From Shigella phage Sfin-1, in the sequence record NC_047998.1: a stretch of DNA of 50,403 bases. One strand, written 5' to 3'. The notes beneath the pieces are model-generated. The model was not told the origin of the DNA, did not search any database, and saw only the letters and a program-made list of their open reading frames with translations. Below, piece by piece: positions 14,903 through 39,800 of this stretch. Positions within the stretch are counted from its first letter, which is position 1, and each line of letters opens with the position of its first letter. Made by a program: the position numbers and the translations under genes.

Positions 14903-15097
14903 TTATGCCTCAGCAAAGTAAGTGTTAAAGCCCTTGAGTTTGTAGTCGCTACCTACGCGCACCACGTTCCAGGTAAGGCCAGAGTGATATGCAACCATAT
15001 CTTCAAGGTCGATCGTGATTTCGGTTCCTTTCTTGAACAGACCCTTTTCATGAGTTGAGTCGCGCTGAACAACAACCACATCAATTTGCGTTTCCAT
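14903..15097 (-). CDS. Hypothetical small protein (64 aa)
   Basis: Start moved to the ATG at 15097, which has a GAGGA RBS. Confidence 0.4.
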   Translation of the reverse strand: METQIDVVVVQRDSTHEKGLFKKGTEITIDLEDMVAYHSGLTWNVVRVGSDYKLKGFNTYFAEA

Positions 15098-15129
15098 CTT
15101 CGTTTCCTCTGTATCGTGTCGATGAAAAG

Positions 15130-15173
15130 ATAATACCCGATCCGCTCGACCGGGCTTTAACAAAAAGTGCTAT
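15130..15173 (-). promoter_or_regulatory. Early promoter cassette (TAGCACTTTTTGTTAAAGC plus 22 bp plus TATTAT)
   Basis: Same architecture; CCCGGTCGAGCGGATCGGG hairpin. Confidence 0.5.
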
Positions 15174-15187
15174 TTCACCTATCAGAG

Positions 15188-15703
15188 TTACAGTCCACAC
15201 TTTTCAATATGTGCTTTCATCTGGCGCACGATCTCATTCACATCGCGAACCATTAACTCGCTATCGGATAGCTTGCTAACATCAACATCAAACGAATCCA
15301 GGCAGTCGGCCAGGCTAACTTTTTTCCGGCTACGGCGTTTCTTCACCGGAACCTCTTCGTCTGTAACGATAACGGTTATCATCGTGATTGCCGCGTCATT
15401 CCGGCCTACCTTCACCTTTGCCACCTTGCCGTACTTGCAAAAGTGGCGGGTAATGATCGGAGTAATGAAAGCAGACTTGAATCGCCTCTCTACCTCAGCT
15501 TGGTTCTGGTTCACCCATCCGGTAGCGCCTCGCTCCACCTCATCATCTGAAATATCCTGATCTCGGAAGTAAAATTTTACCGCCTCTCTCGCCATATCAT
15601 CAGCCACGAAAGAGAACTCGGTCATGCCTTTGTCGCGGTACATTGCATCGCAGGTTAGTCGAATCATGTCGGTGATTTTTAATTCCTGATTGGTATTGCT
15701 CAT
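15188..15703 (-). CDS. Hypothetical protein (171 aa), first gene of the leftward early array
   Basis: GAGGATGG RBS; lies immediately next to the divergent control region. Confidence 0.45.
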   Translation of the reverse strand: MSNTNQELKITDMIRLTCDAMYRDKGMTEFSFVADDMAREAVKFYFRDQDISDDEVERGATGWVNQNQAEVERRFKSAFITPIITRHFCKYGKVAKVKVGRNDAAITMITVIVTDEEVPVKKRRSRKKVSLADCLDSFDVDVSKLSDSELMVRDVNEIVRQMKAHIEKCGL

Positions 15704-16145
15704 AATCCATCCTCATTTGTCTATTGATGTGTAAATGGTGTCATAACATGTCAACAATTGCCATTGTGACAGCGCAATGCAGGGCTGTCAATGCCTGCGA
15801 GCCAATTTTAAGCTGTGTAACATTTGTCTAGCTGTCTAGAGTCCCCATAGAAATATATGACTCTCAAAAAAGTACTGTATATATAAACATGCAGATAGAA
15901 ATATGCCAACAGTACGCTAGACAATGTAAGACGGCTATACACAACTATTACAATATAATTATCTATATATATAAATATAAAAAAAACACTATATATATTA
16001 TATATATACATATATCCATATGTCTATTGTGGGGCGTCACAGTGCGTAATTTTGTCACAAGTGCGATTCTAGACAAATATTACAGTCGTGACAAGTTAAG
16101 GTGTAATCGATAGCACGTTTTGCTAAAAATGGAGATGACCACCAG
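15704..16145. promoter_or_regulatory. Divergent early control region A: TA-rich tract and six TGTCTA half-sites (four direct, two inverted)
   Basis: Non-coding strand-switch region; TGTCTA at 15719, 15825, 15834, 16021 and TAGACA at 15918, 16067; about 60-bp (TA)n-like tract at 15955..16015; degenerate promoter dyad at 16111..16128. Confidence 0.55.
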
Positions 16146-16390
16146 GTGAACCGGGTAACACTAAATCCTCCCTCTCACAATCATTGCATTCCAAGCAACA
16201 ATCACATCAACAGTTGCACACCATGCAACAATCACATTTCATCATTCGAGATCAATTGGGATCGCAATTATTCCAGATATTCCATTGCTGGTGGAATAAT
16301 GAGCAACTATTGGAATAGCATTTTTTGCAACATATCAGCCCTGCCGATAGGGTATGATTCATCTCATCAACCAATCATAGGAATCACGCA

Positions 16391-16603
16391 ATGGAACCAA
16401 AATTTGAATGTGCCGTGCAATGCATTAGCGTTAGCACCGACAGCTTCACGAATCAATCAGTGTATGAGATCTACCTTATTGATGGTGGGTACTTCGCTAC
16501 TGACAATCAGCAAAATCAGATCGGCGTTTTCCGTTCAATGAATGGATGGGATCGCTTCCTTACCAATAACGGGCAGACGGTATTCAAAGAGGTAACGAAA
16601 TGA
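16391..16603 (+). CDS. Hypothetical protein (70 aa)
   Basis: AGGA RBS; ATGA-coupled to the downstream methyltransferase. Confidence 0.4.
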   Translation: MEPKFECAVQCISVSTDSFTNQSVYEIYLIDGGYFATDNQQNQIGVFRSMNGWDRFLTNNGQTVFKEVTK

Positions 16604-17304
16604 AATTAATCTGGTCGCTATTTGACGGTTCCGGTCTTGCTGGTCATGAACTGGCTAAGCAAGGTCACAAGGTGATGTGCTTCAACTTTGACGGAGCAGA
16701 TCACGGAGATTACGAAAAGTATAACGCCAGGGTTGAGCATCCGAACATTGAGTATGTGAACGTCTTTATTGATGAGAAGTTCGAACGTGACGCGATCTCG
16801 GGAGTGTATGGCAAGCCGGATTTTATTATGGCCTTCCCTCCTTGCACTGACCTGGCTGTTAGTGGCGCTAGTCACTTTGCAAGAAAGCGTGAGCGTGATC
16901 CGTTATTCCAGGAGAAGGCTGTCGCCACCGCCCGGATTGCCGCGAACATTGGAGATAGCCTTGGCGTGACTTACATCATTGAGAATCCGGTGAGCGTCCT
17001 GTCGTCTGCGTGGAGAAAACCAAATCACTCCTTCAATCCCTGGGAGTATGGCGGCTATCTTCCTGAGAATGACTCACACCCCTGGTTCCCGATGTATATT
17101 GCGCCGCGCGATGCTTACCCGAAGAAAACTTGTCTTTGGACCTCTGACGATTTTGTCATGCCCGAGAGAAAACCTGTAAGCCTACCTGACGGGTACTCTG
17201 CACAGCACAGTAAGCTAGGCGGCAAGTCCGCAAAGACTAAGCTGATACGCTCCCTGTCGCCCAGGGGATTTTTTAAAGCGATCGCGGATAGCACTTTTTG
17301 TTAA
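16600..17304 (+). CDS. Putative DNA (cytosine-5) methyltransferase
   Basis: Motif I-like LFDGSG, PC dipeptide (PPCTD) as candidate catalytic Cys, ENV-like IIENP; short for the family. Confidence 0.45.
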   Translation: MKLIWSLFDGSGLAGHELAKQGHKVMCFNFDGADHGDYEKYNARVEHPNIEYVNVFIDEKFERDAISGVYGKPDFIMAFPPCTDLAVSGASHFARKRERDPLFQEKAVATARIAANIGDSLGVTYIIENPVSVLSSAWRKPNHSFNPWEYGGYLPENDSHPWFPMYIAPRDAYPKKTCLWTSDDFVMPERKPVSLPDGYSAQHSKLGGKSAKTKLIRSLSPRGFFKAIADSTFC

Positions 17305-17331
17305 AACTCGATCGGTGTGATTTGGCATAAT
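17289..17331 (+). promoter_or_regulatory. Early promoter cassette (TAGCACTTTTTGTTAAAAC plus 22 bp plus CATAAT)
   Basis: Dyad overlaps the stop of the methyltransferase gene. Confidence 0.45.
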
Positions 17332-17369
17332 TACCTCATCGAAACGAGATACACATCAGGAGCAAGAAA

Positions 17370-17705
17370 ATGAAATACGAAAATCGCGGTAACGAAATCA
17401 TCAAAATCGAAAACGGCGTTGAGTACATCATGGTTGCTTGCAAGGTTAACGGAATGGACTCCTTCGTTTGGGAAGAAATCAAAACTGAAGACAAGGCAGT
17501 TAAATTCCTGACCTGTGTTAACCAGCCCGACATGGATCGCGACACATTCACTCGTTACGGTAAATATGAAATCGTTCGCGAGACTGCTTGCTTCTGGTGG
17601 GTGATGCCTAACAGCCAGTACAAATTCCCGCGCAAAATCAGTAAGCGCACCATGCGTGAAGCTGGCATCAAAGAAGCATACGCCGCTGAGTTCGATATTG
17701 CTTAA
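17370..17705 (+). CDS. Hypothetical protein (111 aa)
   Basis: AGGAG RBS. Confidence 0.45.
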   Translation: MKYENRGNEIIKIENGVEYIMVACKVNGMDSFVWEEIKTEDKAVKFLTCVNQPDMDRDTFTRYGKYEIVRETACFWWVMPNSQYKFPRKISKRTMREAGIKEAYAAEFDIA

Positions 17706-17748
17706 TAGCACGAATTGCTAAACGCCCAGAGCGAGATCGGGGTGTAGT
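17705..17748 (+). promoter_or_regulatory. Early promoter cassette (TAGCACGAATTGCTAAACG, weaker -10 TGTAGT)
   Basis: Starts directly after the TAA stop; 22-bp spacer. Confidence 0.4.
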
Positions 17749-17778
17749 GAATAAATCAACAAATCAGAGGATTAAATT

Positions 17779-17940
17779 ATGATCGTATATTGCGTAGTGG
17801 GAACTATCTACTATGAAGGTGATGAACTGATCGAGATATGCTCAACTGAAAGAAAGGCTAACGAGATCAAGAATCTTACTGAGAATGACAGAACCAACTT
17901 CTTTGATGAGATCAAGATTGTTCAAAAAGAGGTTATCTAA
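17779..17940 (+). CDS. Hypothetical small protein (53 aa), below the ORF-track cutoff
   Basis: AGAGGA RBS; exactly fills the gap between two promoter cassettes. Confidence 0.4.
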   Translation: MIVYCVVGTIYYEGDELIEICSTERKANEIKNLTENDRTNFFDEIKIVQKEVI

Positions 17941-17983
17941 TAGCACTTTTTGTTAAACGCGCATCAGGGATGGCTGGTATAGT
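17941..17983 (+). promoter_or_regulatory. Early promoter cassette (TAGCACTTTTTGTTAAACG plus 22 bp plus TATAGT)
   Basis: Spacing verified; GGATGGCT...TCATCC hairpin. Confidence 0.55.
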
Positions 17984-18014
17984 CATCCCATCAACAGCAA
18001 ATGAGGAAAGAATC

Positions 18015-18386
18015 ATGTTTAAGCAATTCATAAACCTGGACTTCTCAGCAAGCACAGCAATCCAGACTGACGAGAAAGAGAGCGTAGCGATCGAGAACAT
18101 TGCGCGCAAGATTTACAACAAGCAAGAGAAGGCGGTGAGAGCCGCTCTAAGCGCTTATTACGGTGTAAGTGATGCAATGGAGTGCGTGAACCGAGTAACC
18201 CGCGCCGTTGACCATTTAGGCGTGTCTCGTTTCATTGATAATGATACTGGAGAGACAATAATCCAGCTTAACAATCCATCAATGCGGACCGAGCTTGGCA
18301 ATATTGCATTATGGGGTGTGGCTAACTATTCAATCACCGTGAACTCCTGCATTGCGGGCCGTGTTAAGGAAGCATTGTATGAGTGA
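18015..18386 (+). CDS. Hypothetical protein (123 aa)
   Basis: Start at the ATG with GAGGA RBS. Confidence 0.45.
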   Translation: MFKQFINLDFSASTAIQTDEKESVAIENIARKIYNKQEKAVRAALSAYYGVSDAMECVNRVTRAVDHLGVSRFIDNDTGETIIQLNNPSMRTELGNIALWGVANYSITVNSCIAGRVKEALYE

Positions 18387-18579
18387 TAATATTTACCGCG
18401 TAGTGGCGATCTCACGCAAGACACAGAAGAGCGTGATCGCTTACATGGGCAGTAGCGCCATTGAAGCTACGGACGCATTCGAATTATTGAAGAACAACGA
18501 GGGGTTTATGAACACGTTCCGCGTTCGACTTGAGCGCCTCGAACCTGTTATCATTGATGAAGCGAGAAAGCTATCCTGA
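18379..18579 (+). CDS. Hypothetical protein (66 aa)
   Basis: AAGGA RBS; start overlaps the upstream stop. Confidence 0.4.
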   Translation: MSDNIYRVVAISRKTQKSVIAYMGSSAIEATDAFELLKNNEGFMNTFRVRLERLEPVIIDEARKLS

Positions 18580-18595
18580 CTGGTTAGGGGGAATA

Positions 18596-18949
18596 ATGAA
18601 CCACACTTACAAGATCACAACGAAGTCACCGAAGATTAACGGAAGCACGGTTGCGGCACTGAATAACGCGGCGGCAATTCACGAAAAAAATATCATGGAG
18701 CGCGTGAAGGCAGCGGTAGGTAGATTCTACGGGATCAACGCTGACATTGCCGACAGCAAGCGACTTTTCAAATACGTGCCAGGTCATCCATATAGCAGGA
18801 TGATTGATATCAAGCATGAAAAAGAATTGGTTCGAATCGGATCTCTCAGCATTGATGAGTTCGACCATAGCATCAACCTGGTGACGGCGTATCAAACTTG
18901 GGACGGTAAAAATGATTTACATTCACACTTTCTATACTGGCAAATTTAA
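18596..18949 (+). CDS. Hypothetical protein (117 aa)
   Basis: AGGGGG RBS. Confidence 0.45.
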   Translation: MNHTYKITTKSPKINGSTVAALNNAAAIHEKNIMERVKAAVGRFYGINADIADSKRLFKYVPGHPYSRMIDIKHEKELVRIGSLSIDEFDHSINLVTAYQTWDGKNDLHSHFLYWQI

Positions 18950-19055
18950 CAGCGTAAAAAATGTTCGCGTTTACGATAGCCATCAAAAAGCAATGATGCA
19001 GAAAGTAGTTCTAGGTGGCACAATCAAAGAGTGCAAAGTAATTTCTGAGTACTGA
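18912..19055 (+). CDS. Possible small protein (47 aa)
   Basis: ORF ends 1 nt before the next promoter dyad; weak RBS; overlaps the upstream gene 3' end. Confidence 0.25.
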   Translation: MIYIHTFYTGKFNSVKNVRVYDSHQKAMMQKVVLGGTIKECKVISEY

Positions 19056-19099
19056 TAGCACGAATAGCTAAAGACGACAAACCGGGAGTAAGGTATATT
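19056..19099 (+). promoter_or_regulatory. Early promoter cassette (TAGCACGAATAGCTAAAGA, about 23 bp, TATATT)
   Basis: GGGAGTAA/TTACTCCC hairpin around the -10. Confidence 0.45.
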
Positions 19100-19132
19100 A
19101 CTCCCACACCAAACGAAACGAAGGAATTAAAA

Positions 19133-19357
19133 ATGAGCATTAAAGTTGAGAATATCATCAAGCATTTGAACGCAAAAGGCCGTGTAGTTATCAAGATGGA
19201 TAAGTCTTCAGGTTTTATTTCAATGACAGTGACTAAGACGCGTAACGGAAATAGCGTAATCGGAAGAACCCCAGGTTCTCGCTTGATAAATGCAACAGAT
19301 GCTGATGTGCGCGCTACGCTTGAGGCCAACTCAATTTACATTAATTCATGGAGTTAA
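19133..19357 (+). CDS. Hypothetical protein (74 aa)
   Basis: GAAGGA RBS. Confidence 0.45.
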   Translation: MSIKVENIIKHLNAKGRVVIKMDKSSGFISMTVTKTRNGNSVIGRTPGSRLINATDADVRATLEANSIYINSWS

Positions 19358-19570
19358 TTGATGGAACGGGATAATTTCTGGACTCGTTATTTTGCCGCTC
19401 TTGATGCCGGGCTTAGTGCGGAATGGTGTATCAAGGTTGCATATAAAGAAATCACACTTGAGGACGCGCTAGGGAATATGGATATGGACGCAGAAAGCGA
19501 ATATAATCCAGACTTCGAGTTACCTGGCGATGATATTGATGAGGACGACGACGATTATATTCCCTGGTAA
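19358..19570 (+). CDS. Hypothetical acidic protein with SSB-like C-terminal tail (DDDDYIPW)
   Basis: C-terminus resembles the acidic tip (DDDIPF) of the SSB encoded at 32910..33323. Confidence 0.45.
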   Translation: MMERDNFWTRYFAALDAGLSAEWCIKVAYKEITLEDALGNMDMDAESEYNPDFELPGDDIDEDDDDYIPW

Positions 19571-19572
19571 AT

Positions 19573-19624
19573 AGCACGATTTGTTAATATTGCCGTAAGG
19601 TCATTTGATAAAGTGACCTTATTC
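19573..19624 (+). promoter_or_regulatory. Early promoter cassette (TAGCACGATTTGTTAATAT plus TGaTAAAGT)
   Basis: GGTCA...TGACC hairpin. Confidence 0.45.
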
Positions 19625-19650
19625 AAGATAACCAATCAGGAGTTAATGCG

Positions 19651-20067
19651 ATGAAATCAATCAAACTGAAATGTACTTACGCCGATAAAATCACAGGATT
19701 TGAAGTTAACAACCTATACAAAGGTCGAGAGCGTTTCGATGGCACTCGCGAAGTAAAATTAAAATGCGGGAAGTATTTAAAACTTGAAAAGCATGATGAA
19801 TTACAGATTCACGGATCTGATGAAATCTTCTTCGCGAAGTTCACTGAGTTGAAAACAAAGACGCTCAAGTGCACCGGGCTTGACCATCGCAACCCAATGA
19901 AAAAATCATTCAAAGTTGGCAAGCGTTACCAGGTTGAAAGCGGTCGCGCTCTCGGTGGCGTAGCTGGTTACATCTTTGATGAAGATGGTTGTCGCTGGAC
20001 CTTATTTCGCGAAGAGGTTGGTTTTAGTATCGCAGACGGCACAACCTTTGAGGCCAAATACTTATAA
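19651..20067 (+). CDS. Hypothetical protein (138 aa) with two internal repeats related to the paralogous small-domain family
   Basis: IKLKCTYADKITGFEVNNLYKG and TLKCTGLDHRNPMKKSFKVGKRYQV. Confidence 0.45.
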   Translation: MKSIKLKCTYADKITGFEVNNLYKGRERFDGTREVKLKCGKYLKLEKHDELQIHGSDEIFFAKFTELKTKTLKCTGLDHRNPMKKSFKVGKRYQVESGRALGGVAGYIFDEDGCRWTLFREEVGFSIADGTTFEAKYL

Positions 20068-20072
20068 CCAAT

Positions 20073-20113
20073 AGCACTTTTTGCAAAACGCGTGTACCAT
20101 TGGCGGTGTATCA
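20073..20113 (+). promoter_or_regulatory. Early promoter cassette (TAGCACTTTTTGCAAAACG plus 22 bp plus TATCAT)
   Basis: GGTGTA...TACACC hairpin. Confidence 0.5.
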
Positions 20114-20143
20114 TTTACACCGTCAACTAAGGAGTTTATTGTG

Positions 20144-21712
20144 ATGTTTAATATTAAGCCAAAACTGAATTACCAACAGATTATTGAGATCGCCAATAGT
20201 ACTGGAGTTAATCCGGTGGCGATCGCAATTCGTGAAAACAGCTATGGTGACTCAGTTTCATTTTGGCAAGATCCGATCGATATCAATAGCGGCAACGATA
20301 AGTTCCCTCTGATTTCGTTAGGTGGCGATAACCTGGTATTCGAATATGCAAAAGCAAAGGCCGAGTCTGTACAGTTCCCTGTTTCGTCTGCGTACGCTCA
20401 TTTCATTGGGTGCATCTCAGCCGCGATGCTCGGGAAGTTTTGGGTGCAATATCACGGAGAAGAACAACCAACCGCTCTTTACATGGTAATCAGCCAGCCA
20501 CCGTCAACAGGTAAATCTGCGATTAACTCCGCAGCGATTACGCCTATGCGCGCAGAGATTCAGCGACTGAATGAAGAGCGAAAAAAGGAACGTATCCGTT
20601 TAACCAGTCAGCTACGCCAGGTCGAGAAGGAAATTAAAAACGACCCGAAGGGTAACACGACGGCAGCGCTATACGAGGACAAAGAAAAACTGGAAGAGAA
20701 AATCAAGAAGATGGCTGATATTGTTTTCGCGGTATCAGATCCTACACCAGAAGGTCTAGCGAAAGTAGCTGCTGTTCAAGGTCATTTCTCCGTAATCTCT
20801 GATGAGGCGACAGCAATCAATACATTGCTCGGCCTGACTTATGGTGGTTCAGACAAGAAATCAAATAGTGAGCTTATCCTTAAGGCGTGGGATAAAAACC
20901 ATATGGAGGTAGCGCGTTCCAACCAGGATAACAACTTGTCCCTTTGCCCGGTCGGTTCCATCTGCGTTATTGCGCAGGATGAAACAATCAAGGGTATCAT
21001 GGACGCAGGCCAACGAGGCATCGGCGTATCTGAGCGCTTCCTTCTTGTTCGTGAGGAACCTCTTTTAGGTACTCGTATCCTTTGCGATGAAAATGGTGAT
21101 GCACTGTATAAGGAAGTCGATCGAGGATTGGTGAGTAAATATTATCGACTCGTGCACAACATTATGAAGGAGGAAAACGTTGTTCTTTCTGTAAGTCGTA
21201 ATGCTATGCGTGAATTAAACCTTGCGCGTCAGGCGATGGAGCCGGATTTCGCCGCAGGTGGGAAATACTCTCACTCAATGCTACGCGGTCATCTCGGAAA
21301 GTTCGATAAGCACGCCTTGCGTATTGCTTCAGTTCTCCACACGATCAAGAATTGGGAGGGTGAATCACCGAACCGTTCCAACCGTGAGATTGACCTTGAA
21401 ACGATGCAGGAAGCAATCATGATCTTCAATGAGCTTTCCAGGACTTATCTGTCGTCTGCCAGCGCTGCCGGGTATGCTGGTGATGAGGCTGAATCTCGTA
21501 AGCTGATTGATGTTATCACTGAGATCGCAAAGAAGAATAAAGGGCGCGCTCCTATTCATAGCATCGTTGCAAAGTGCCGGAACGTTACTCCGTTCAACGG
21601 TCAACAGAAAGTATCTGAGAGAATAGATAGCCTGCTGATCACGCTCGAAGAGATGAACTACACTTGCCGCATTGATGATATTGTTTTCATCAATCCTCGA
21701 CTGATGGGTTAA
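20144..21712 (+). CDS. Large P-loop protein (putative replication-associated ATPase, DUF3987-like)
   Basis: Walker A-like QPPSTGKSA; start at the ATG with AAGGAG RBS; largest early gene. Confidence 0.4.
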   Translation: MFNIKPKLNYQQIIEIANSTGVNPVAIAIRENSYGDSVSFWQDPIDINSGNDKFPLISLGGDNLVFEYAKAKAESVQFPVSSAYAHFIGCISAAMLGKFWVQYHGEEQPTALYMVISQPPSTGKSAINSAAITPMRAEIQRLNEERKKERIRLTSQLRQVEKEIKNDPKGNTTAALYEDKEKLEEKIKKMADIVFAVSDPTPEGLAKVAAVQGHFSVISDEATAINTLLGLTYGGSDKKSNSELILKAWDKNHMEVARSNQDNNLSLCPVGSICVIAQDETIKGIMDAGQRGIGVSERFLLVREEPLLGTRILCDENGDALYKEVDRGLVSKYYRLVHNIMKEENVVLSVSRNAMRELNLARQAMEPDFAAGGKYSHSMLRGHLGKFDKHALRIASVLHTIKNWEGESPNRSNREIDLETMQEAIMIFNELSRTYLSSASAAGYAGDEAESRKLIDVITEIAKKNKGRAPIHSIVAKCRNVTPFNGQQKVSERIDSLLITLEEMNYTCRIDDIVFINPRLMG

Positions 21713-21716
21713 TAAT

Positions 21717-22124
21717 ATGCTTCTTCTTTTAGATCTGTTCAGGTTCTGCGAAGGTTACGACAAATACACTCGACAGCACATAGCGAAATTTATATACGCC
21801 CACAAGGAAAGTGAGCGTTTTGCTAAGGCTGCTGGAATGACTCGCCGTGAGTTTACAAGCGCGCTATCTAAGGAGTTTTGCGCTCGTTGCGTGACTGAGG
21901 GTTACTTAGATCGCAAGGATGGAGTTTACTGGTGCAAGGGAAAGATTAAGCGCCCGGTAATGATGAAGCTGATGTGTATTGATGGCCACAACAATCGGTA
22001 TACGTGGGAAATGATGCACATTGGAGAGATGAGTGATGAAGATTTGTTTGGCGAACGTAGAAACATTGATAGATCGGAACGTCGAATTGTGCGCAAGGCT
22101 CCAGCTTACGAAAGAAGAATTTGA
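21717..22124 (+). CDS. Hypothetical protein (135 aa)
   Basis: Follows the P-loop gene with a 4-nt gap. Confidence 0.4.
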   Translation: MLLLLDLFRFCEGYDKYTRQHIAKFIYAHKESERFAKAAGMTRREFTSALSKEFCARCVTEGYLDRKDGVYWCKGKIKRPVMMKLMCIDGHNNRYTWEMMHIGEMSDEDLFGERRNIDRSERRIVRKAPAYERRI

Positions 22125-22236
22125 GCAAGGGTTGTTGAGTCTGTTACTCACTTCAATGAGGGCCAGTAACGAAAGCGAGCATAATCTTTGCGATAAGGAG
22201 GGGGAGTTACTCCTTCACGTAAAAAGGTACAAATAG
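22036..22236 (+). CDS. Possible hypothetical protein (66 aa) overlapping the 3' end of the previous gene
   Basis: GGAGAG RBS; stop adjoins the next promoter dyad; the overlap makes one of the two calls uncertain. Confidence 0.25.
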   Translation: MKICLANVETLIDRNVELCARLQLTKEEFEQGLLSLLLTSMRASNESEHNLCDKEGELLLHVKRYK

Positions 22237-22277
22237 CACTTTTTGTTAAAACACCCGATCTCGTATCGGGTATATTT
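22235..22277 (+). promoter_or_regulatory. Early promoter cassette (TAGCACTTTTTGTTAAAAC plus 22 bp plus TATATT)
   Basis: CCCGATCTCGTATCGGG hairpin. Confidence 0.5.
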
Positions 22278-22313
22278 GTTTCATCGAAATGAAACGACCT
22301 GAAGGAAAACATC

Positions 22314-22529
22314 ATGGCTGACAAATTTTTAGTAGTTCGCGTTTACAACCACTCTAACGGCACTAGCAGTGAGATTCCTACCCTTTACAGCAAGGCTGAT
22401 GGATGGACTGAAGAAACGGCGGTAGCGAACGAGAAGAAGGTCGCTGAGATGTACGGCGACACCTGCGAGATTGAGGTTCGCGAATACGCAAAACTCACGA
22501 ACGAAAGTTATATGTGGGAAGACGCATAA
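22314..22529 (+). CDS. Hypothetical protein (71 aa)
   Basis: GAAGGA RBS; followed by a strong terminator. Confidence 0.45.
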   Translation: MADKFLVVRVYNHSNGTSSEIPTLYSKADGWTEETAVANEKKVAEMYGDTCEIEVREYAKLTNESYMWEDA

Positions 22530-22532
22530 AAG

Positions 22533-22558
22533 AAAAGGAGGCTAAGCCTCCTTTTTTC
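22533..22558. terminator. Bidirectional intrinsic terminator between convergent genes
   Basis: AAGGAGGCT-AA-GCCTCCTT hairpin flanked by A- and T-runs. Confidence 0.7.
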
Positions 22559-22946
22559 CGTTCTTACGAAGTGAAAAATAAATCATCAACAGGCCAATAA
22601 AAACGAGAGTCCACCCTACAATTGCATCGTACCAGTTCCCCGGTTTTGTTACCGTGATGCTTTCAGCGTTAACCGTGTTAGCCTGAATGGTTGACACTTC
22701 CACAGACTTCTTGACGGATGAGTCAATCTTGCCAATATTTGAATCACTCACCTTCACTTCTCGCTTATCGTCGGCCTTTGCAGTAACTCCCGCCAGTTGC
22801 TTAGTGTTCTCAGCGCCAACCTGCGCAGTAACATCCGGGGAGTCAGAAAGTAAACCGCTCAGAGCAGATGCCGTCGAGCAACCGGATAGAGAAATAACAC
22901 CAACAGCCACTGCAATCGCAATGCACGTTTTCTTCAGTTTCATCAT
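22542..22946 (-). CDS. Unimolecular spanin (T1 gp11-type)
   Basis: N-terminal lipoprotein signal with lipobox LSGC plus C-terminal transmembrane helix; last gene of the lysis cassette. Confidence 0.6.
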
Positions 22947-23431
22947 AATTCCTTAACGCAATACGCGTATTCTTCAGCGCGTCGGTTCTTGAGTCCTCTA
23001 GACACTTCGCGCTTTTTGGTTTTTGGATTGTAGTAGTATACCCATCGCCATAACTGATTGCACGCCTCCTTGTGCTTACTCTGATTGATTAGCTTAAGCA
23101 TTGTAGAAGATCCGAATGCGCCAGTACCAACGTTGAAAGTAAAGCTGTAGAGTGAGGCGCGCATCGTTACCGGAATTTCAACCTTAACCTTCTTGTCAAC
23201 GTATCGCTGAGCGACGCCGATATGTTTTATCAGCAATGCATCGCATTCTCGCTTAGTGTATTTCTTGCCAGGTATGACGTCCGGCCCGGTTATTCCGCTG
23301 CATACTGTAGGTACTCCGGCGATATCGTAATACACCTCGTACTCTATCCCTTCGATTCGTTCCAGTAGGGTAGGCGTCAACGTCAAAGCGGCCCCGATCG
23401 ATGCGCCTATAACGTTATTTTTTAAACTCAT
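22943..23431 (-). CDS. SAR endolysin (lysozyme, T4-lysozyme-like catalytic triad)
   Basis: E-x8-D-x5-T in [16 protein letters not shown]; Gly/Ala-rich weakly hydrophobic N-terminus typical of a signal-arrest-release domain. Confidence 0.7.
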
Positions 23432-23646
23432 TATCTCCCCCTAATCTTAAGCGCCTTATTTAGATCGCCATCGTTTAACGCTTCCTGAATTGCCTTACTG
23501 TCACGATACTTCCAGTATGCGCCCCATGCACCAAAAAGCAGAAAGCAAATGAATGTAGCGCCAGCAATATAAAGTTGCCCTGTCGCCGCACCTACCAATG
23601 AAGCGCCGCCCGTGCTTGACGTAGCTGCTGTTAAAAATTCTTTCAT
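23431..23646 (-). CDS. Holin (pinholin-like, two transmembrane segments)
   Basis: 71 aa from the internal ATG with GGTGA RBS; two hydrophobic segments and a charged C-terminus; TAATG coupling to the endolysin. Confidence 0.55.
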
Positions 23647-23764
23647 AATATCACCATATATTTTTTGAACAAGTGAGTTGATTTTAACCTTCAAATTTAC
23701 TTGATACAACGCAAAAGGGCCAGCATGTAAACCATGCCAGCCCGTAAGGTTATGAATGATATTG

Positions 23765-23941
23765 TTAATCTAGCTCAATAAATTCCAGGTAATGACCGTT
23801 CAGAGGAGATTGGATTGTTGAACCTCTGCCATCGTAAATCTCAAACAATCCACCACCGAAATCATAACCAACACTATAGATCTGATTTACGCGGAATGGA
23901 AGCGTTTTGGAATCATTTCGGATGCACTTAACTCGTTTCAT
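23765..23941 (-). CDS. Hypothetical small protein (58 aa)
   Basis: AGAGGG RBS. Confidence 0.3.
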   Translation of the reverse strand: MKRVKCIRNDSKTLPFRVNQIYSVGYDFGGGLFEIYDGRGSTIQSPLNGHYLEFIELD

Positions 23942-24004
23942 GAAATACCCTCTTTGTTTTATATGTGGTCAATATACCCGAATCCCTTCGGGAGTTTTTG
24001 GCGA

Positions 24005-25156
24005 TTAGTGCGATCCTGTCATTTCTGGACGATAGATGAATCGCCCGATTTCACCAAACTGTTTATCGTAAACGATTACCGCCGCCTGGCGATATGAGCG
24101 CCACCCTCCTCGCGCTGCGTATGCATCTTTCGCGCCTAACTGCCCGTGAACCTCATCAATACCTAACGAGTGTTCAGTAATTGTCTGATGATGCCAGTGT
24201 CCGCTATGCGTGTACACGTATTTGCTTTCACCAAAATCTGCGCGGAAATCTGCTGCCATCGCTGCAAGTCGCGTGTCTGCCTTTTTCATCGTGTGACCGT
24301 GAGTGTATCCCAACAAGGTATTTCCCCAGCGGGTCTTATGCAGAATCATAGGACTAACGTCAACGAATACTCGCGGCTCGTCCTCATAGTATGCAGCCAT
24401 TGCAGCGCGTAGCCAAATCATTCCGGCCTGGTCGTGGTTCCCTTCGATAACCTGAACTTCGACCTCTTTGTGTTTAGTCAGCATTTTGTCGATAGCTCGT
24501 CGCACCGATCGAATAGCCACATGCACCAATTTCGCATATCGTGAATCCTGATCCAGAACGTGACCACTTGCCGGGGTAACAGCATCAAGACCGTCTGAGT
24601 GAAGGAAGTCGCCGCCGATTAACAGAACAGCCTTCTCTGCGTTCGGGGCAATATCGATCGCGTAGTTAAAGAAGTCATTCAGCACTTTTTCCGCTACGTC
24701 TGTAGAGTAGTTCTCTCCGCATTCATGCTTGTGAGCAAGTGCGCCAATGTGAAGATCGAACACCGGGTAGAGTGCCAGCTTGCCAATAGCGGTTGTAAGC
24801 CCTTGCGAGGTGAGTAGCTCAGTTGGTTTTGCTCGCGGCAAGTCTTCACAGAATGCAATACGCGCAGCTTCCATCATTGCCGCAATCTTCTCACGGTCCT
24901 GATCGGTCTTAACCCATCGCACTACCTCGGTCCCATCGCCGCGAATCATAGTTGATGTGCCTTTTACCATGAATCCTTCCGGTACGTTCTTAGCAACATG
25001 CTCGTTACCGTGGAAGTGACCTTCTTTTGCAAGTTTGGCGTGACGCGCTTCAACTGTGCGGATGTGCATACCGTACTTTTCAGCGATCTCGCGAAGTGTA
25101 AGTCCGCTCATGCGCTCTTCGATAAGTTGCTCGGTAGTGATTTTAGCTTGTGACAT
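24005..25156 (-). CDS. Calcineurin-like metallophosphoesterase with N-terminal helix-turn-helix domain
   Basis: Phosphoesterase motifs D-x-H (FDLHIG), GDxxD (GGDFLHSDG), GNHD, GHTH, GHWH; N-terminal LTLREIAEKYGMHIRTVE resembles an HTH. Confidence 0.6.
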   Translation of the reverse strand: MSQAKITTEQLIEERMSGLTLREIAEKYGMHIRTVEARHAKLAKEGHFHGNEHVAKNVPEGFMVKGTSTMIRGDGTEVVRWVKTDQDREKIAAMMEAARIAFCEDLPRAKPTELLTSQGLTTAIGKLALYPVFDLHIGALAHKHECGENYSTDVAEKVLNDFFNYAIDIAPNAEKAVLLIGGDFLHSDGLDAVTPASGHVLDQDSRYAKLVHVAIRSVRRAIDKMLTKHKEVEVQVIEGNHDQAGMIWLRAAMAAYYEDEPRVFVDVSPMILHKTRWGNTLLGYTHGHTMKKADTRLAAMAADFRADFGESKYVYTHSGHWHHQTITEHSLGIDEVHGQLGAKDAYAARGGWRSYRQAAVIVYDKQFGEIGRFIYRPEMTGSH

Positions 25157-25234
25157 ATTTTAATCCTTACATGATAATGAAATACATTACTGAAAATGAA
25201 ATTAGCGGTGTTAATACTACAGCAAAATAAAGAT

Positions 25235-25636
25235 TCATGCCACAGCCTTTAACCAGAATCCTAGATCTGACGATTTAAACTCAACCAGCTTTCCGTCAAC
25301 CTCAAGCATCATACTGTTTCTGCCAGGTGAGTAGTAACCTATATGCAACTCATGCTCCATACCGATAGTGCAAAGCACATTAACGAAGTCAGGAGGCAAC
25401 CAATCAGAGAAAGGGATTTTCTTAACCTGCTTTTTTCCGATCCAGATAGTATGATAATCTTCTGCGTTAATATTTAAGCCTGGAAGGCTTGTTGTTTTTT
25501 GCTGCTTTTCGTTCTCGCTCAATTCTCTTTCCTTCTTCACGATAAAACTCAAGTGACGGAGTTGCTGGCACTCTATGCATTTTTCTCGGCATATCTTCCA
25601 TAAATGAAATCTTGCCATTTGATATAATGCTAACAT
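25235..25636 (-). CDS. Hypothetical protein (overlaps 25467..25739 in another frame)
   Basis: 133-aa ORF; weak RBS; C-terminal 80 aa look protein-like. Confidence 0.3.
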   Translation of the reverse strand: MLALYQMARFHLWKICREKCIECQQLRHLSFIVKKERELSENEKQQKTTSLPGLNINAEDYHTIWIGKKQVKKIPFSDWLPPDFVNVLCTIGMEHELHIGYYSPGRNSMMLEVDGKLVEFKSSDLGFWLKAVA

Positions 25637-25739
25637 CCTTTATATCGAAATATTTCGCTATTAGTGCTATATCGTCTGAGATTCCGCATTCCTTCGCGTG
25701 CTCCCAAACCTCGCGTTTACCTTGTTTTTTTATCAACAT
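25467..25739 (-). CDS. Hypothetical protein (overlaps 25235..25636 in another frame)
   Basis: GGAG RBS; N-terminal 55 aa look protein-like, C-terminal part is low-complexity basic. Confidence 0.3.
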   Translation of the reverse strand: MLIKKQGKREVWEHAKECGISDDIALIAKYFDIKDVSIISNGKISFMEDMPRKMHRVPATPSLEFYREEGKRIERERKAAKNNKPSRLKY

Positions 25740-25926
25740 TGGTTAATTTCTCCACGCTTTCAATAAAACACTCAACATCTTTGACTGAGCAGCGATAGTA
25801 AGCCATTTTAAGGAAGTTCATAGCAATATCCCAATCAAAATTGCCGCCTTGCTTTTCAGTGATATGAACAGCCATTTTTGCAGACTGCTGAGCGATATTG
25901 AAAAAGTTTGCGTTAATGCGTGCCAT
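25717..25926 (-). CDS. Hypothetical protein (69 aa)
   Basis: Start at the ATG with GAGGA RBS, downstream of a promoter cassette. Confidence 0.4.
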   Translation of the reverse strand: MARINANFFNIAQQSAKMAVHITEKQGGNFDWDIAMNFLKMAYYRCSVKDVECFIESVEKLTNVDKKTR

Positions 25927-25958
25927 CTTATTATTCCTCATTTCGTTTTGATGAAATA

Positions 25959-26002
25959 ACTATACCCGACTTTCGCCGGGTAGTTTTAGCAATTAGTGCT
26001 GT
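25959..26002 (-). promoter_or_regulatory. Promoter cassette (TAGCACTAATTGCTAAAAC plus 22 bp plus TATAGT)
   Basis: Same architecture as the early cassettes; CCCGGCGAAAGTCGGG hairpin. Confidence 0.5.
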
Positions 26003-26244
26003 AAGATCGTGTCGGATTTAAGTTCTTCTACGTCTTTCTGAATGATTGAAGGCCAATGCTCTATGTGTTTATTCTTTATCTCATCGAACGACATATCAAG
26101 AGAACTTGTAAACTCCCATAAATCGCAACCAATAACATCTTGAGTTAATCCGTTTCTCTCCATAATTTCGCAGCACGTAGCGCGATAAAGAAGCCATAAC
26201 CCTTGATCGGTTAATTTAACAGGAACCATTTTTTCGCTCATCAT
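25993..26244 (-). CDS. Hypothetical protein (83 aa), translationally coupled to the Dam gene
   Basis: ATGA overlap with the Dam stop. Confidence 0.45.
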   Translation of the reverse strand: MMSEKMVPVKLTDQGLWLLYRATCCEIMERNGLTQDVIGCDLWEFTSSLDMSFDEIKNKHIEHWPSIIQKDVEELKSDTILQH

Positions 26245-26954
26245 ACTTTTCTCACCTTTGCTCGTTTGTTTTTAACGGAAGGACAAATGCTTGTGATTGG
26301 GATGTAGTGAGTCTGTTGCGTCTCACCTTCTTTAAGTTCGCGCATAATAAAAATAACCGAACCTTTGTTGTTGCCGTCTACGGCTTTTCCAGTTTCACCT
26401 GATATGAAAGCCAGACGACCGGATCGTGCGTATTCATTGCCGTCAATATCCTCAGTCAAATCAGCTTCAATCCAGATGATTTCAGCCGCGTGCTGTCGAG
26501 CCTCAGTAAACCACGCCGTCGAGTTATCGGCAGGTAAAAGAATATCGATCTGGTTGTTGTGCTCCATTTGCTCAATCGCTTTCTTGACGAATATATCAGG
26601 TCGACTGTAAGGAGGATTTAACCATACGTGCTTATTTTTACCCCACCAACGTTTTAAGCAGTTTGTTTCCTGGGAATAAAACTTCTCGCAAACTTTATTT
26701 TCTTCGCTTGCCGCAGCGTCTAGATCATATTTTCCGTAGCGCCCCTCAAGATATGCGATAACCTCTCGTGGAGTTGACCATAAATCACGAACAGCATCCG
26801 GCGTATTGGTCCCCTTGTATCGACGTCCTGAAATCTCTTTGCAGGTTGGGGTTTTCAATGCCTGATAATAACCGCCTGATGCTATTGCTTCGCGAGTAAA
26901 TGAGCAACCAGTTTCAGCAAAATCAATGGTTTCGATATCATTAAAGTCTTTCAT
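26241..26954 (-). CDS. dam: DNA N6-adenine methyltransferase (phage Dam type)
   Basis: NPPY catalytic motif (WLNPPYSRPD); GAGAGGA RBS. Confidence 0.75.
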   Translation of the reverse strand: MKDFNDIETIDFAETGCSFTREAIASGGYYQALKTPTCKEISGRRYKGTNTPDAVRDLWSTPREVIAYLEGRYGKYDLDAAASEENKVCEKFYSQETNCLKRWWGKNKHVWLNPPYSRPDIFVKKAIEQMEHNNQIDILLPADNSTAWFTEARQHAAEIIWIEADLTEDIDGNEYARSGRLAFISGETGKAVDGNNKGSVIFIMRELKEGETQQTHYIPITSICPSVKNKRAKVRKV

Positions 26955-26980: not shown

Positions 26981-27025
26981 AATAATGCCAGAATCCATTC
27001 CGGCATGTTTAGCAAAAAGTGCTAT
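26981..27025 (-). promoter_or_regulatory. Promoter cassette upstream of the Dam gene (TAGCACTTTTTGCTAAACA plus AT-rich -10)
   Basis: Dyad in minus orientation; -10-like ATTATT at about 22-23 bp. Confidence 0.4.
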
Positions 27026-27438
27026 TTCGTTAAATCGTATATTGCCAGCTTGAATTGCTCAAATCCGTATGCAACGGCAGAGAATCCACCGCGATCCCGA
27101 ACCTTTTTGAGAAACTCCCTTTGCTTATCGCTGACTGGTGATGCCTTTCCTTTGCCGGACTTATTAACCCGCTTGAGTTCGATAGCTGCGAACGGGTAAC
27201 GTGAGTTTATACCAATCAGAATAACAAAGTCTGATACGCCTTTAAGTAATCCAGCCTGCTCATCCCTAAGTGCCGAAGTGATTGTTTTTTCACCTTCGTT
27301 AACTGTGTGCCAAAATAGAAGCTGAGGAAAATTGTATTTCAACCAGGACACGCAGTCTACTTGATGAGCGTCCTCCTTTCGCGTGTCGCTAGGATCTCGC
27401 TCGTAAAACTCTAAGTAATCGCCTTTATCTGTAATCAT
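27022..27438 (-). CDS. VRR-NUC domain nuclease (PD-(D/E)xK fold)
   Basis: D...ELK core (DFVILIG...AIELKR); ATGA-coupled to the helicase. Confidence 0.55.
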   Translation of the reverse strand: MITDKGDYLEFYERDPSDTRKEDAHQVDCVSWLKYNFPQLLFWHTVNEGEKTITSALRDEQAGLLKGVSDFVILIGINSRYPFAAIELKRVNKSGKGKASPVSDKQREFLKKVRDRGGFSAVAYGFEQFKLAIYDLTK

Positions 27439-29453
27439 TCCGGGATATCCTCCATACCGAAATCTTTGCGTGAAATAATATCTTCTTTCTTCTGGTTGCG
27501 TCTATGAGTAACGCGTACCGGATGCGCTATATGATGAGCGTATTGCACGATCTTGATAGCGTTCTTCATTCCGATAAAGTAGCGACGCATTTTAGGATCT
27601 GATACGTGAGGTAATACTCCTTTCGTTTTCCATAGCGTACCGCAAATCTTAGAGTCTGACTCAGGGAAGAATTTTTCATACGCCTTGAACTCATCACCAT
27701 CGTCGTTAATAAGTGTGTATTTGTATATCACACCCTTTTGGTTTTTGGTTAACGTAACTTCAAAATTCTTGACCTCGTACCAGTCATTCTTAGTGTACGC
27801 CTTACCGGATAACTTAAGGTTAGGATCAACAAGAGAAACATCGCAACAGCGACATACTCGGGCAACAACGTCATTCTCGGCACCGCACCCTTTAACAAGA
27901 ATTTTCCCGGTACGTTCATCAACCTGGTCCTCGCAAATCTGAGAAGTCCAGAAATGATCGCAGCGTTCACCGTCGATAACGTTAACGCATCGGCGAGCGT
28001 AGAAGCTATTTACGCAACCACATTTCGGACACTTTTTCGGGTCTTTTCCGTTCTCAAATCGCTTCTGGAACTGAGCCTGCTCAAGTATAGGATCGAAATA
28101 AAGCTGCCCCAACTCATCCATCGTGCCTGCGAAATCCCATACAAGATGGTCTTGCTTAACCATCCCTTCAGCAACCTGCCATGATTTAAGAAGTCGCATA
28201 CCCCTACCCAAAAGCTGAATCAGCAAGGTGAGAGATCCTATCTTGCGAAGTATTACACTGAAATCCCAGTTTGGAACGTTAACGCCAGTAGTTAGCGCCA
28301 TGACCTGAAAGGTGTATTTAATTTTCCCTGCCCTCACATCATCAAGAATCTTCTTGCGCGTTTTAGTGTCTGTGTCGCCAGTAATAATTGCATATGTGCT
28401 TCCAGGCGGTAGTGCCGCTGCCGCCTCTTTGCAGTGACGCACCCCAGCGCATGTAATCAGGACTGCGTTACGCTCTTCAGCCTTTTTAGCAACCATTTGC
28501 ATGATTCGCTGAGTAAGAGATTTATCATGAAGGATCTCATCTTCCATTGCCTTCATATCTTTCTCTGTAAAGTCCTGTACCCCATCCTCGCTTGATGCCT
28601 TAAATTTATCAAGATCGTAGTGAACTCCGTCCGTCGAGCCGAATATAGTAGGAACAACTGAGCCAAACTCAATAAGGTAGTTGGTGTCTATATCAGTAAC
28701 GCGCTCACGCCAGAAGCCTAACGCCTTTGGATTCTCAACAAGAATAGGAACTACGCCACGAAATTCAGATCCAGTCATACCAAATATTCTGAGGTCGTGA
28801 CCGTGAGTTTCTTTGCAGCGGCGCATCATTTCCATGATTACGATCGTGTATTGGCTTCGCTTAGTTCCAAGTAGAGGCTTCCCATCATTACCAATCAGAG
28901 GAACCTCCCCATTCATAATGATTTTTCCCTTCTCTTCCCGCATCTGTTCCATCGTTTCCTTGCCATCTATGGCTTGTGCAAGGTCTTCCCAATCCACCTG
29001 GTGACATTCATCTATCCCGATTACGTGAGGGACAAAATCAGCTAGCTCATTATTTAAACCATTTGCAACAGTACCCTCAGAGCCTACCACGATCGGGAAG
29101 TAGCAAGACTTGATTCCAAGTGACGCTGAGAATATAGAGTTAGTCACCCCGAAATTGTCGATCTCTTCACTATCCTGATCGACAATCTCACCCTGGCGTG
29201 CCAGCACAAGCATTTTCAAGCCCATTTTTTGACACTGCTTTGCAACCATAGCAAAAATGATGGTCTTACCCGCCGATACTGACGCTTTAACAAAGAATGG
29301 GTGCTCATAATTTGATAGGCGTTTTGCGATCTCAGCATAAGCAACAACCTGGTACGGATACGGAACGACCTCACCAACAGTGAATCGTTCTTGAGTGCGT
29401 TTTATATAGTCCTCGCCAAGTAATGCGATTTGCTTTTTGATGTTAATTGTCAC
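27435..29453 (-). CDS. Superfamily-2 DNA helicase with C-terminal zinc-ribbon
   Basis: Walker A SAGKT, motif II DECH, C-terminal CPKCGC...C..C cluster; GTG start with AAAGGA RBS. Confidence 0.8.
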   Translation of the reverse strand: MTINIKKQIALLGEDYIKRTQERFTVGEVVPYPYQVVAYAEIAKRLSNYEHPFFVKASVSAGKTIIFAMVAKQCQKMGLKMLVLARQGEIVDQDSEEIDNFGVTNSIFSASLGIKSCYFPIVVGSEGTVANGLNNELADFVPHVIGIDECHQVDWEDLAQAIDGKETMEQMREEKGKIIMNGEVPLIGNDGKPLLGTKRSQYTIVIMEMMRRCKETHGHDLRIFGMTGSEFRGVVPILVENPKALGFWRERVTDIDTNYLIEFGSVVPTIFGSTDGVHYDLDKFKASSEDGVQDFTEKDMKAMEDEILHDKSLTQRIMQMVAKKAEERNAVLITCAGVRHCKEAAAALPPGSTYAIITGDTDTKTRKKILDDVRAGKIKYTFQVMALTTGVNVPNWDFSVILRKIGSLTLLIQLLGRGMRLLKSWQVAEGMVKQDHLVWDFAGTMDELGQLYFDPILEQAQFQKRFENGKDPKKCPKCGCVNSFYARRCVNVIDGERCDHFWTSQICEDQVDERTGKILVKGCGAENDVVARVCRCCDVSLVDPNLKLSGKAYTKNDWYEVKNFEVTLTKNQKGVIYKYTLINDDGDEFKAYEKFFPESDSKICGTLWKTKGVLPHVSDPKMRRYFIGMKNAIKIVQYAHHIAHPVRVTHRRNQKKEDIISRKDFGMEDIPE

Positions 29454-36899: not shown

Positions 36900-39800
36900 T
36901 TACCAGACACCAACAACCACTCGACCCCCGTTAGGTAAGTTGACCGTGATACCGTTATTGTTTATCTGAACCGTGTTATTTGTTCCGTTAAATGCAAACT
37001 CTCCGTTATTTGCGTAAATTCTACCCCTCACGGTTGCATTCATGAATGAAGCGTCGCCATTCTTGTTTATGGCCCACCCATTACTCCCATCCCAATTGTT
37101 AGATTGAATCCAGTTTCCAATCATGGCATTAGTAATAAAGCCATCCTTGATGATCGCACTACTTAGAATAACCTGGCCATTCTCAACAACGAATGGGTAC
37201 TGAGTCTGACCATTCATCCCTGTCATGATTGCAAATCGTGATGCCTCAAACAAAATCTGCGCCTTAACCGCAGCTCCGGAACCAATCAGAGACATAGCCA
37301 TGCCTGCACTGTATTCTTGTCCGTTATACTTCAGACCGAGCTTGACGCCGTACATTGCACCAGTCGAATCCGCATTGCTCCACGAATCAAGTTTTTGAGA
37401 AAGCGCTGCCTCATTATTCCCAAGCCTCGCGCTTAACGACAAGTCAGCTTGCGTTCTCGCCTCAGTCTCGTTTGCTATAGCCTCTCTGATATCAGTCAAA
37501 CTTGCCTGGATATCATCACCAATCTCTGCCTTGAGTTGGTCAATTTCACGCGATAGCGCTCCAGTCTCAGTTGCGATAACTTCACGCAATTCGCTGTTGC
37601 TAGCGCTAATCTGATCGCCAAAACTTGCTTTCAATTGCTCGATCGCCGTCACTCGTGCCTGCGTCTCATCAGCAATAAGTTTCAGTGATTTCGTGTACTC
37701 AGCTTTTCGTTTTCCGTTCTCCTTCTTCATGTAGATCGCGTCTTTGTCATTGGCGAGCGCGTTTTCTATTGCTGCCTCTGCGTTAGCTGCGTTCTGCGCC
37801 GCGTTGTCGGTTGCGTTATCAACAAGCCACTCGTAACCAGGCGAGTTTTCGATATCGACAGAAATCTCCCCAATGATATCGTCAACGTTTGTTGATGCCA
37901 TACCTCTGACAAAATCAGTCCACTGAGACACGTTACCGATCCTATCAACCGTCCTTACCCGATACCACACAATATTCCCGCCCGGCATCGGTGAATGATA
38001 ATACTCATGCTGCGGATACGGGATCAGAGAGAGTAAACTCGCATTGTCAACCGTTCCATCCGGTGACTGTTGCAACTCTGTATAGGCCGTATCTCCAGAA
38101 CCATCAGAGAACCCCCATTTTGTACGGATACCAAAAACAACATCATCCGTAGCTGTAAGGTTAATCGGTCGACCCGGCTCACCTTGTTTGCCCGTCAGCG
38201 TCGCAGCTACGATATTTGACCATCCTGAAGTCGTACCGGAACCAGCTACGGAGCGAACGCGAACCTGATAGTTGCCAGCGTAAATACCTTCAACGTATAC
38301 CTCTTTGTTTGCTGTCTGTGGTACATTTTGCCAGTTGCCATTATCCTTTCTCCACTGAACATCATAGAAAACTGCGTACGGCACTTTATCCCAGCTTACA
38401 ATCATCGTCTCTACGCTCATCCCCTGGACGATTCGTGACTCAGATGACACTTGCACGTTTTCCGGTCTAGGGATCTGGTCTGGTTCAACGATACTCGTCG
38501 GTCTGTCGTCTATGTTCACACCGTAATCAATCTCATCGTACTTGTTAGGATCGTACTCCACCGCAGTAATCTTGTAGGTAAATTCCTCATCGTCATCACC
38601 CTTATCGATTTTTGTCACGACGTACTGCTGTAACGCAATGTCTGTGCGGTCGATAGCGAATACCGTGTTAGGCTTCACAGGAAAGCCAAAGCCAATGTTA
38701 ACCTCTATAGTCTTACCATCCGCACTAACACTTGAGATTGTGCGCTTCACGGGCTTGCCATCTGGCTTATTTACGATAATAAAGTCACCCGCGCGTGCAT
38801 CCACCCGGAACGGCAAGAAAATCTGACTTCCAGACACTTCGAGCAAGCGCCCTGATAGGTTCATCGTCAAGTTACTTGACCAGAAGTTATCAGCTATTGC
38901 CACAACATCTCCGATTGTCGGGATCATACCCTCAAGACCGGTAGCGAAGTTTACCGTAGTGCTGCGGAGGTTGGTTTTCAGAATCCATCTCCCGCGTCGG
39001 TTGGCCTCGCTTCGACGTGTGCAACCGATCGCTGTAATGCTGGTTACGTTATTACCGAACCGCAGAGTCGCCTCACGATCGAATACTGGCTCAACGTCCT
39101 GTTGATACATGTTTTGCTCGTCGTCAAACATCACGTTACACGTCGTGTACATACTCTTTTCGCTTGCGAACGTATAGGAGAAGTCACCATTAACAACGTT
39201 GTCGTTAGTGAAGATGTAAGCAGGCTCACGCGGTCTGTCGATGATTACCGAGATGCTTTCGCCATTCCAGAAGCTCATACCACGGAAGATTGAGCAAATA
39301 TCTCGAATCACCTTATACGCATCAGTCTGTGACTGAATTATCACGTCGCAAAGGTAGCGAGGCTCCGTACCGCCTTTCCCGTCAGGAACCATCTGGTCGC
39401 AATATTGCGCCGCCTCATATAGCGCCCATTTATCGACAGATATTCCAAGCTCTTTCTGATCCAGCCCGTAACGCTGATTAATCATCAAGTCATAAAGAAC
39501 CCAAGCCGGATTATTAGTCCACGCCTTCTTAAAAGTGCCATCCCAATTTCCGTTATAAGTTCGTGATTCCGGATCGTAGTTTGACGGAACGTTTACAATT
39601 TTCCAGCGCTTACGAATTGAGATCGTAGGTAACTGGTTTGGGAACATCTTCGAGTCGAACTCTACGAAAAGAAGACCTGTCAGAGGGTAACGGAATTTGG
39701 CATCAATCACCTCGGCATAGCTCTTTACCTGAATCGCATCAACAACGTTTGAATTATCAGAATCTGGAGTCTTTCGAACAATCCTGAATATAACCTGGTT

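Follow-up and report, generated by a model that had tools for sequence, protein, structure and literature searches.

Our results indicate that Shigella phage Sfin-1, a T1-like Tunavirus, very probably encodes two DNA methyltransferases, both solitary (orphan) and both from known families: a T1-type Dam acting on GATC (237 amino acids (aa); 26241-26954, minus strand) and a minimal C5-cytosine enzyme (234 aa; 16600-17304, plus strand). The window analysed is the complete genome of 50,403 bp (NC_047998.1). The coordinates of its open reading frames (ORFs) match the published table of coding sequences (CDS) one for one, and both methyltransferase genes already stand there with identical coordinates, CDS36 (16600-17304) labelled 'DNA methylase, COG0270' and CDS56 (26954-26241) labelled 'DNA adenine methyltransferase, TIGR01712/pfam05869' (PMC6714547). 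Each gene is a known member of a family that is itself known, and the genome is published; the finding is real but ordinary, and it carries little weight as a discovery, given that the Dam is essentially T1 Dam and that the C5 family has already been shown to make 5-methylcytosine (5mC) and to set off the retron Ec86. A sequence-only reading of this DNA had placed a C5-cytosine-type gene second in a rightward early array and an NPPY-type N6-adenine gene in a leftward block with a nuclease and a helicase, and had proposed that the two enzymes together would protect the phage from a broad set of restriction systems. What it had observed was confirmed, and its interpretation is partly supported.

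The adenine methyltransferase

The product of 26241-26954 falls into the T1/HP1-type phage Dam family, matching Pfam PF05869 at 4.8e-69 (231.8 bits, cutoff 28.1) and the NCBIfam equivalog TIGR01712 at 4.1e-71 (237.8 bits, cutoff 97.05), and its translation contains the (D/N)PPY catalytic motif as W-L-N113-P-P-Y116-S. It is 98.7% identical to the Dam of T1 (M.EcoT1Dam, ST20, YP_003925.1), an identity that spans all 237 residues and leaves just three amino-acid differences; the NPPY loop is the same, and no functional difference is expected. T1 Dam was reportedly purified and sequenced in 1987-1990. GATC methylation by T1 Dam has been demonstrated: T1 DNA from a dam- host stays sensitive to DpnI, and deletion of T1 dam abolishes this sensitivity, as re-tested in 2023 (PMC10470545). 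Because of its near-identity to T1 Dam, the Sfin-1 enzyme is predicted to be a GATC-specific N6-adenine methyltransferase. A sequence search of solved structures gave no meaningful match for it.

The enzyme would use S-adenosylmethionine and its NPPY loop to methylate adenine at N6 in the GATC sites of replicating phage DNA and would leave all 256 of these sites methylated whatever the Dam status of the host. Such methylation would block enzymes that need unmethylated GATC, and it would also tag the phage for any system able to sense methylated GATC. The genome shows no avoidance of this site, for which 192 occurrences are expected from mononucleotide composition and the Markov observed/expected ratio is 0.81. 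The densest local clusters, with 5 sites per 300 bp, lie at 3151-3550 and at 17651-18000, the second of them just downstream of the C5 gene.

The cytosine methyltransferase

The 234-aa protein matches PHROG 757 ('DNA methyltransferase') at 8.6e-84 in a full-length match that covers residues 1-231. A word-indexed search returned 4,836 homologues and an exhaustive profile search roughly 2,000 clusters (50% identity). Of the 150 best cluster representatives, nearly all have lengths of 200-260 aa and align with the profile from one end to the other. Members occur in 1,579 phage records, among them T1-like, Dhillonvirus, Jersey-like, rV5-like and some T4-like phages, as well as phages of Klebsiella, Salmonella and Campylobacter. 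Since this length is kept across the family, the shortness that the sequence-only reading had noted as unusual is, in the sequences compared, a stable family trait and not a sign of decay.

Because alignment of the family to E. coli Dcm with hhalign gave motif IV only, the motifs were mapped from the predicted secondary structure together with the conservation profile of 105 diverse family members. Motif I is F8-D-G10-S-G12, directly after the strand at residues 3-7, with G12 kept in 74% of the members and G10 variable. Motif IV is P80-P81-C82-T, in which Cys82 (kept in 95%) is the nucleophile. Motif VI is E128-N129-P130, at the end of the strand at residues 124-129, a Val-to-Pro variant of the ENV that canonical C5 enzymes have in this place; the three residues are conserved in 99, 92 and 98% of the members, respectively. 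Nine residues (C82, G89, E128, N129, P130, R139, K175, W180 and R217) are each present in at least 91% of the profile, and the most conserved positions overall are F79-P-P-C82-T, G89, K96, E128-N-P130, R139, P147, D171, Y173, K175, T177, W180, P188, R217 and G223, of which the stretch from R217 to G223 (I-R-S-x-T-P-x-G) resembles motif X.

The predicted structure has the C5-methyltransferase fold. The AlphaFold model reached a mean predicted local distance difference test score (pLDDT) of 89.6 and a predicted template modelling score (pTM) of 0.88, and the 35 best Foldseek matches were all DNMT3A/B. Towards the catalytic domains of DNMT3A and DNMT3B, the closest solved structures, identity is 13-16% and the query-normalised TM-score only about 0.5; compared with these domains, the phage enzyme is short by some 50 residues, and it has no QxRxR motif. 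A sequence search of solved structures, with the protein and with the family profile, gave nothing meaningful, and NCBIfam holds no model for the protein. In the proposed mechanism, Cys82 of motif IV would attack C6 of a flipped-out cytosine and Glu128 of motif VI would protonate N3, after which the methyl group of S-adenosylmethionine would go to C5.

The description 'Dcm-like', which the sequence-only reading had used, holds for the catalytic chemistry and goes too far as to kinship. The catalytic loops can be aligned, PPC82TDLAVSG in the phage enzyme with FPC177QPFSLAG in E. coli Dcm, and the same chemistry is predicted from them; beyond this loop no sequence similarity to E. coli Dcm was found with hhalign, which aligned the family profile to the K-12 protein over just 24 columns in the neighbourhood of motif IV, with E 0.08 and a probability of 0.7%. 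In comparison with E. coli Dcm and M.EcoRII the phage enzyme is also far smaller (234 versus 472 aa), and it has no comparable recognition domain. As only the catalytic loop aligns, 'Dcm-like' is best taken, at the level of sequence, as a statement on chemistry that would imply neither kinship nor CCWGG specificity, and the label should not be used to assign that target. The genome contains CCWGG 95 times, at an observed/expected ratio of about 1, which is uninformative on specificity; the frequencies of GATC and CCWGG are near expectation and do not reveal what the enzymes recognise.

Documented activity of the family

The activity of this family and one costly consequence of it for the phage are already documented. 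Wang et al. (10.1101/2023.08.16.553469; Cell Rep 2024 43:114857) worked with the Drexlerviridae phage K42, which shares 95.4% genome identity with KarlJaspers, and isolated from it escapers of retron Ec86. Each of the four K42 escapers carried lesions within a 711-bp dcm gene or just upstream of it, and in one of them a 2.26-kb block was missing that comprises dcm and three other genes, a deletion that fits the accessory module seen in Sfin-1 (10.1101/2023.08.16.553469). In the same study, expression of Dcm was toxic only in the presence of Ec86, the C82A/E128A/K175A/K176A mutant was inert, and LC-MS (liquid chromatography coupled to mass spectrometry) against a standard detected 5mC on the multicopy single-stranded DNA (msDNA) of the retron only with the wild-type enzyme (10.1101/2023.08.16.553469).

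The KarlJaspers protein (bas06_0055) and the Sfin-1 enzyme are 56% identical and 73% similar over their full length (E 8e-89). Both the Sfin-1 enzyme and the Dcm of K42/KarlJaspers belong to PHROG 757, they differ little in size (234 versus 236 aa), and both are encoded in an early accessory block; C82, E128, K175 and K176 occupy identical positions in the Sfin-1 and KarlJaspers enzymes. By analogy with this homologue, the Sfin-1 enzyme would be expected to have the same activity. The best-documented consequence of carrying such a gene is the triggering of retron Ec86, which the sequence-only reading had not considered. Overexpressed bacterial Dam or the Dam of phage P1 triggers, through GATC methylation, another retron, Sen2 (10.1101/2020.06.22.160242), and both kinds of methylation predicted for Sfin-1 would accordingly be of types that retrons can sense. 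The C5 enzyme may in this way be a liability on hosts that carry Ec86, such as E. coli B/BL21, which is relevant to the choice of T1-like phages for therapy and for production strains.

Target recognition

The sequence-only reading had also seen no obvious target-recognition domain in the cytosine enzyme, and none was found here: between P188 and the IRS motif there are about 27 residues (189-215). The shortage is shared by the whole family, in which the segment has a median of 27 residues (range 24-39); bacterial C5 enzymes have a recognition domain of at least 80 residues in that place. The short loop would stand in for the usual domain. Residues 189-215, encoded by 17165-17245, vary more than any other well-aligned part in the conservation profile of the family, and two main classes of loop occur among 120 close relatives, YSxQH in 90, including Sfin-1, and NPGW in 24. 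The loop of Sfin-1 is DGYSAQHSKLGGKS, of the YSxQH class, and that of KarlJaspers is DKDNPGWAKTGGKS, of the NPGW class.

Because there is almost no recognition domain, an unusual mode of recognition might be imagined, in which the mini C5 enzyme responds to a motif of very few bases or to the shape of the DNA, such as a hairpin or a single strand, the YSxQH and NPGW loops encode different specificities, and the role is perhaps other than genome protection. We regard this as a tentative and rather unlikely proposal; if true, no smaller cytosine methyltransferases that read sequence would be known, and the family would offer a compact scaffold to engineers. Which sequence this family of about 230 aa recognises, and hence what benefit the phage draws from it, is a small and tractable question.

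Several points weigh against the assignment of the cytosine gene as a minimal C5-cytosine DNA methyltransferase with a role like that of its homologue. The protein falls below the threshold of the C5-methyltransferase family PF00145 (12 bits, cutoff 22; E 0.14), and the match covers motifs I-IV only; among its relatives, 22 of 35 match this profile at E<=1, the best at 1.3e-6. No QxRxR motif VIII can be recognised in the enzyme; on the predicted structure, R139 or the D171-x-Y-x-K175-x-T177 segment, beside the strand at residues 177-181, may substitute for it. The loop classes of the Sfin-1 and KarlJaspers enzymes are not the same, so their specificities could differ. The strain in which the target of the K42 enzyme was addressed, MG1655, is dcm+. 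The CCWGG target was taken over from the host Dcm, with mutations of the msDNA in MG1655 as its one support (10.1101/2023.08.16.553469). Finally, the BASEL study found no link between the methyltransferase genes of T1-family phages and their resistance to restriction (PMC8594841), and the benefit of the C5 enzyme to the phage, which is probably a narrow anti-restriction role, therefore stays inferred.

Protection from restriction

The proposal that the two enzymes together shield the phage genome broadly from restriction has some points in its favour, since both methyltransferases are solitary and are expressed from blocks of early and middle genes, neither GATC nor CCWGG is avoided in the genome, as expected of protected sites, and the general view of phage Dam enzymes is that they serve against restriction (10.1101/2020.06.22.160242). 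It is nonetheless improbable. Dam covers a single 4-bp site and T1 manages without a C5 enzyme; each of the two would protect only its own short motif, and 'broad' protection is therefore not supported. Most phages of the T1 family were found to be very sensitive to restriction systems in the BASEL study (PMC8594841), and the presence of these methyltransferase genes is no predictor of resistance to restriction in T1-like phages.

Avoidance of sites seems to matter more to this genome. There is strong avoidance of six-bp palindromes, with 14 of the 64 absent altogether, including CAGCTG (12.4 expected), GGATCC, GCATGC and CTGCAG, while AAGCTT occurs once against 16 expected, and there is one EcoRI site and one EcoKI site in the whole genome. 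The missing palindromes, together with the single EcoRI and EcoKI sites, point to avoidance as the broader strategy and speak against a shield of methylation as the main one.

Restriction digests of phage DNA bear on the specificity of the C5 enzyme in a limited way. The DNA of Sfin-1 was cut as predicted by BglII and MluI (PMC6714547). MluI is blocked by C5 methylation of the CpGs in its site. If that holds here, ACGCGT is not a fully methylated target in Sfin-1, which is weak evidence. The DNA of T5-like phages was found to be without 5mC (PMC10644984), and the first 50 kb of T5 contain no annotated methyltransferase.

Other explanations for the cytosine enzyme

It is doubtful that the C5 enzyme acts mainly on other nucleic acids, be it the DNA of the host, DNA in single-stranded or hairpin form, or RNA in the manner of Dnmt2, or that, for want of a real recognition domain, it methylates with a relaxed or very short specificity. 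Its closest folds are those of DNA enzymes, DNMT3A/B and M.HhaI, and DNMT3 enzymes reach CpG specificity with a recognition loop that is similarly small. McrBC cuts at RmC, and phages that carry the gene plate well on McrBC+ E. coli K-12, which argues against promiscuous methylation of phage DNA.

Transfer of a group other than methyl, for example a carboxymethyl group from carboxy-S-adenosylmethionine to give a hypermodified cytosine, is very improbable: the structural match to such an enzyme can be put down to a common fold (17% identity), ordinary methyltransferases match no less closely, and the LC-MS of the retron study detected 5mC against a standard. Least credible of all is that a full-length C5 methyltransferase has decayed here to an inactive remnant, for although the protein is about 90 residues shorter than enzymes of the M.HhaI type (327-330 aa) and lies below the Pfam threshold, this reading is effectively refuted by the family-wide conservation of length and catalytic residues described above, by the spread of the family among phages and by a homologue that is active in vivo.

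Genomic context

The C5 gene is the second of the rightward array, which begins after an AT-rich divergent region (15704-16390). The first is a 70-aa ORF to which no function is assigned (16391-16603, plus strand; CDS35, PHROG 16851). The ATG of the methyltransferase gene overlaps the TGA of this ORF (ATGA) and is preceded by AAGAGG; the overlap of stop and start suggests translational coupling of the two genes. In a blastn comparison of 15000-18500 with T1, both flanks have their counterparts there (48694-48836 and 48189-48714), and the stretch between them has no match; tblastn of the protein found no homologue of the C5 methyltransferase in T1. Together these comparisons delimit an accessory early module of 1.6 kb (16373-17976, plus strand), and the C5 gene would be, on this alignment, a dispensable early accessory gene that is inserted relative to T1. 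Besides the 70-aa ORF, the module holds ORFs of 111 aa (17370-17705, plus strand) and 53 aa (17779-17940, plus strand); the three companions fall, respectively, into PHROGs 16851, 29431 and 3002, and have no known function.

The region 16000-18000 is 100% identical to that of Shigella phages Sfin-4, -5, -2 and -6 (species Tunavirus Sfin1, Drexlerviridae). The annotation of this region varies among the records: in Sfin-2 (GenBank MK972831, 14391-15304) the 'DNA methylase' label is misplaced on the upstream 70-aa ORF and the true 234-aa methyltransferase is called hypothetical, and in Sfin-4, -5 and -6 every feature under the matched region is labelled hypothetical.

The dam gene lies in the leftward block that the sequence-only reading had described, and Pfam supports the identity of its neighbours. 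The block begins with a superfamily 2 (SF2) ATP-dependent helicase (27435-29453, minus strand; ResIII 7e-9, Helicase_C 4.8e-11), the counterpart of T1 ST22, followed by a VRR-NUC nuclease immediately upstream of dam (27022-27438, minus strand; PF08774 2.8e-13), the counterpart of T1 ST21; in the published table these are CDS58 and CDS57, respectively (PMC6714547). The order helicase, VRR-NUC, dam and an 83-aa ORF is common to Sfin-1, T1 and KarlJaspers. A terminator-like hairpin, a match from a consensus scan only, lies between the VRR-NUC gene and dam (26985-27006, minus strand). As the T1 annotation also has a terminator (38973-39001) between the homologous genes, this putative terminator may to some extent insulate dam and the 83-aa ORF from the genes upstream. 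Consensus scans for promoters and terminators around both methyltransferase genes gave matches at background level and say little on transcription units.

Further along the leftward block, downstream of dam, 24005-25156 (minus strand) encodes a protein of 383 aa with no Pfam match and a PHROG 704 ('DNA repair exonuclease') match at 5e-157. On the plus strand, 20081-21712 encodes a 543-aa DUF3987 protein (3e-42) whose T1 counterpart, ST9, is annotated as a DNA helicase; the neighbour of ST9 in T1, the HNH endonuclease ST8, is not among the Sfin-1 ORFs listed.

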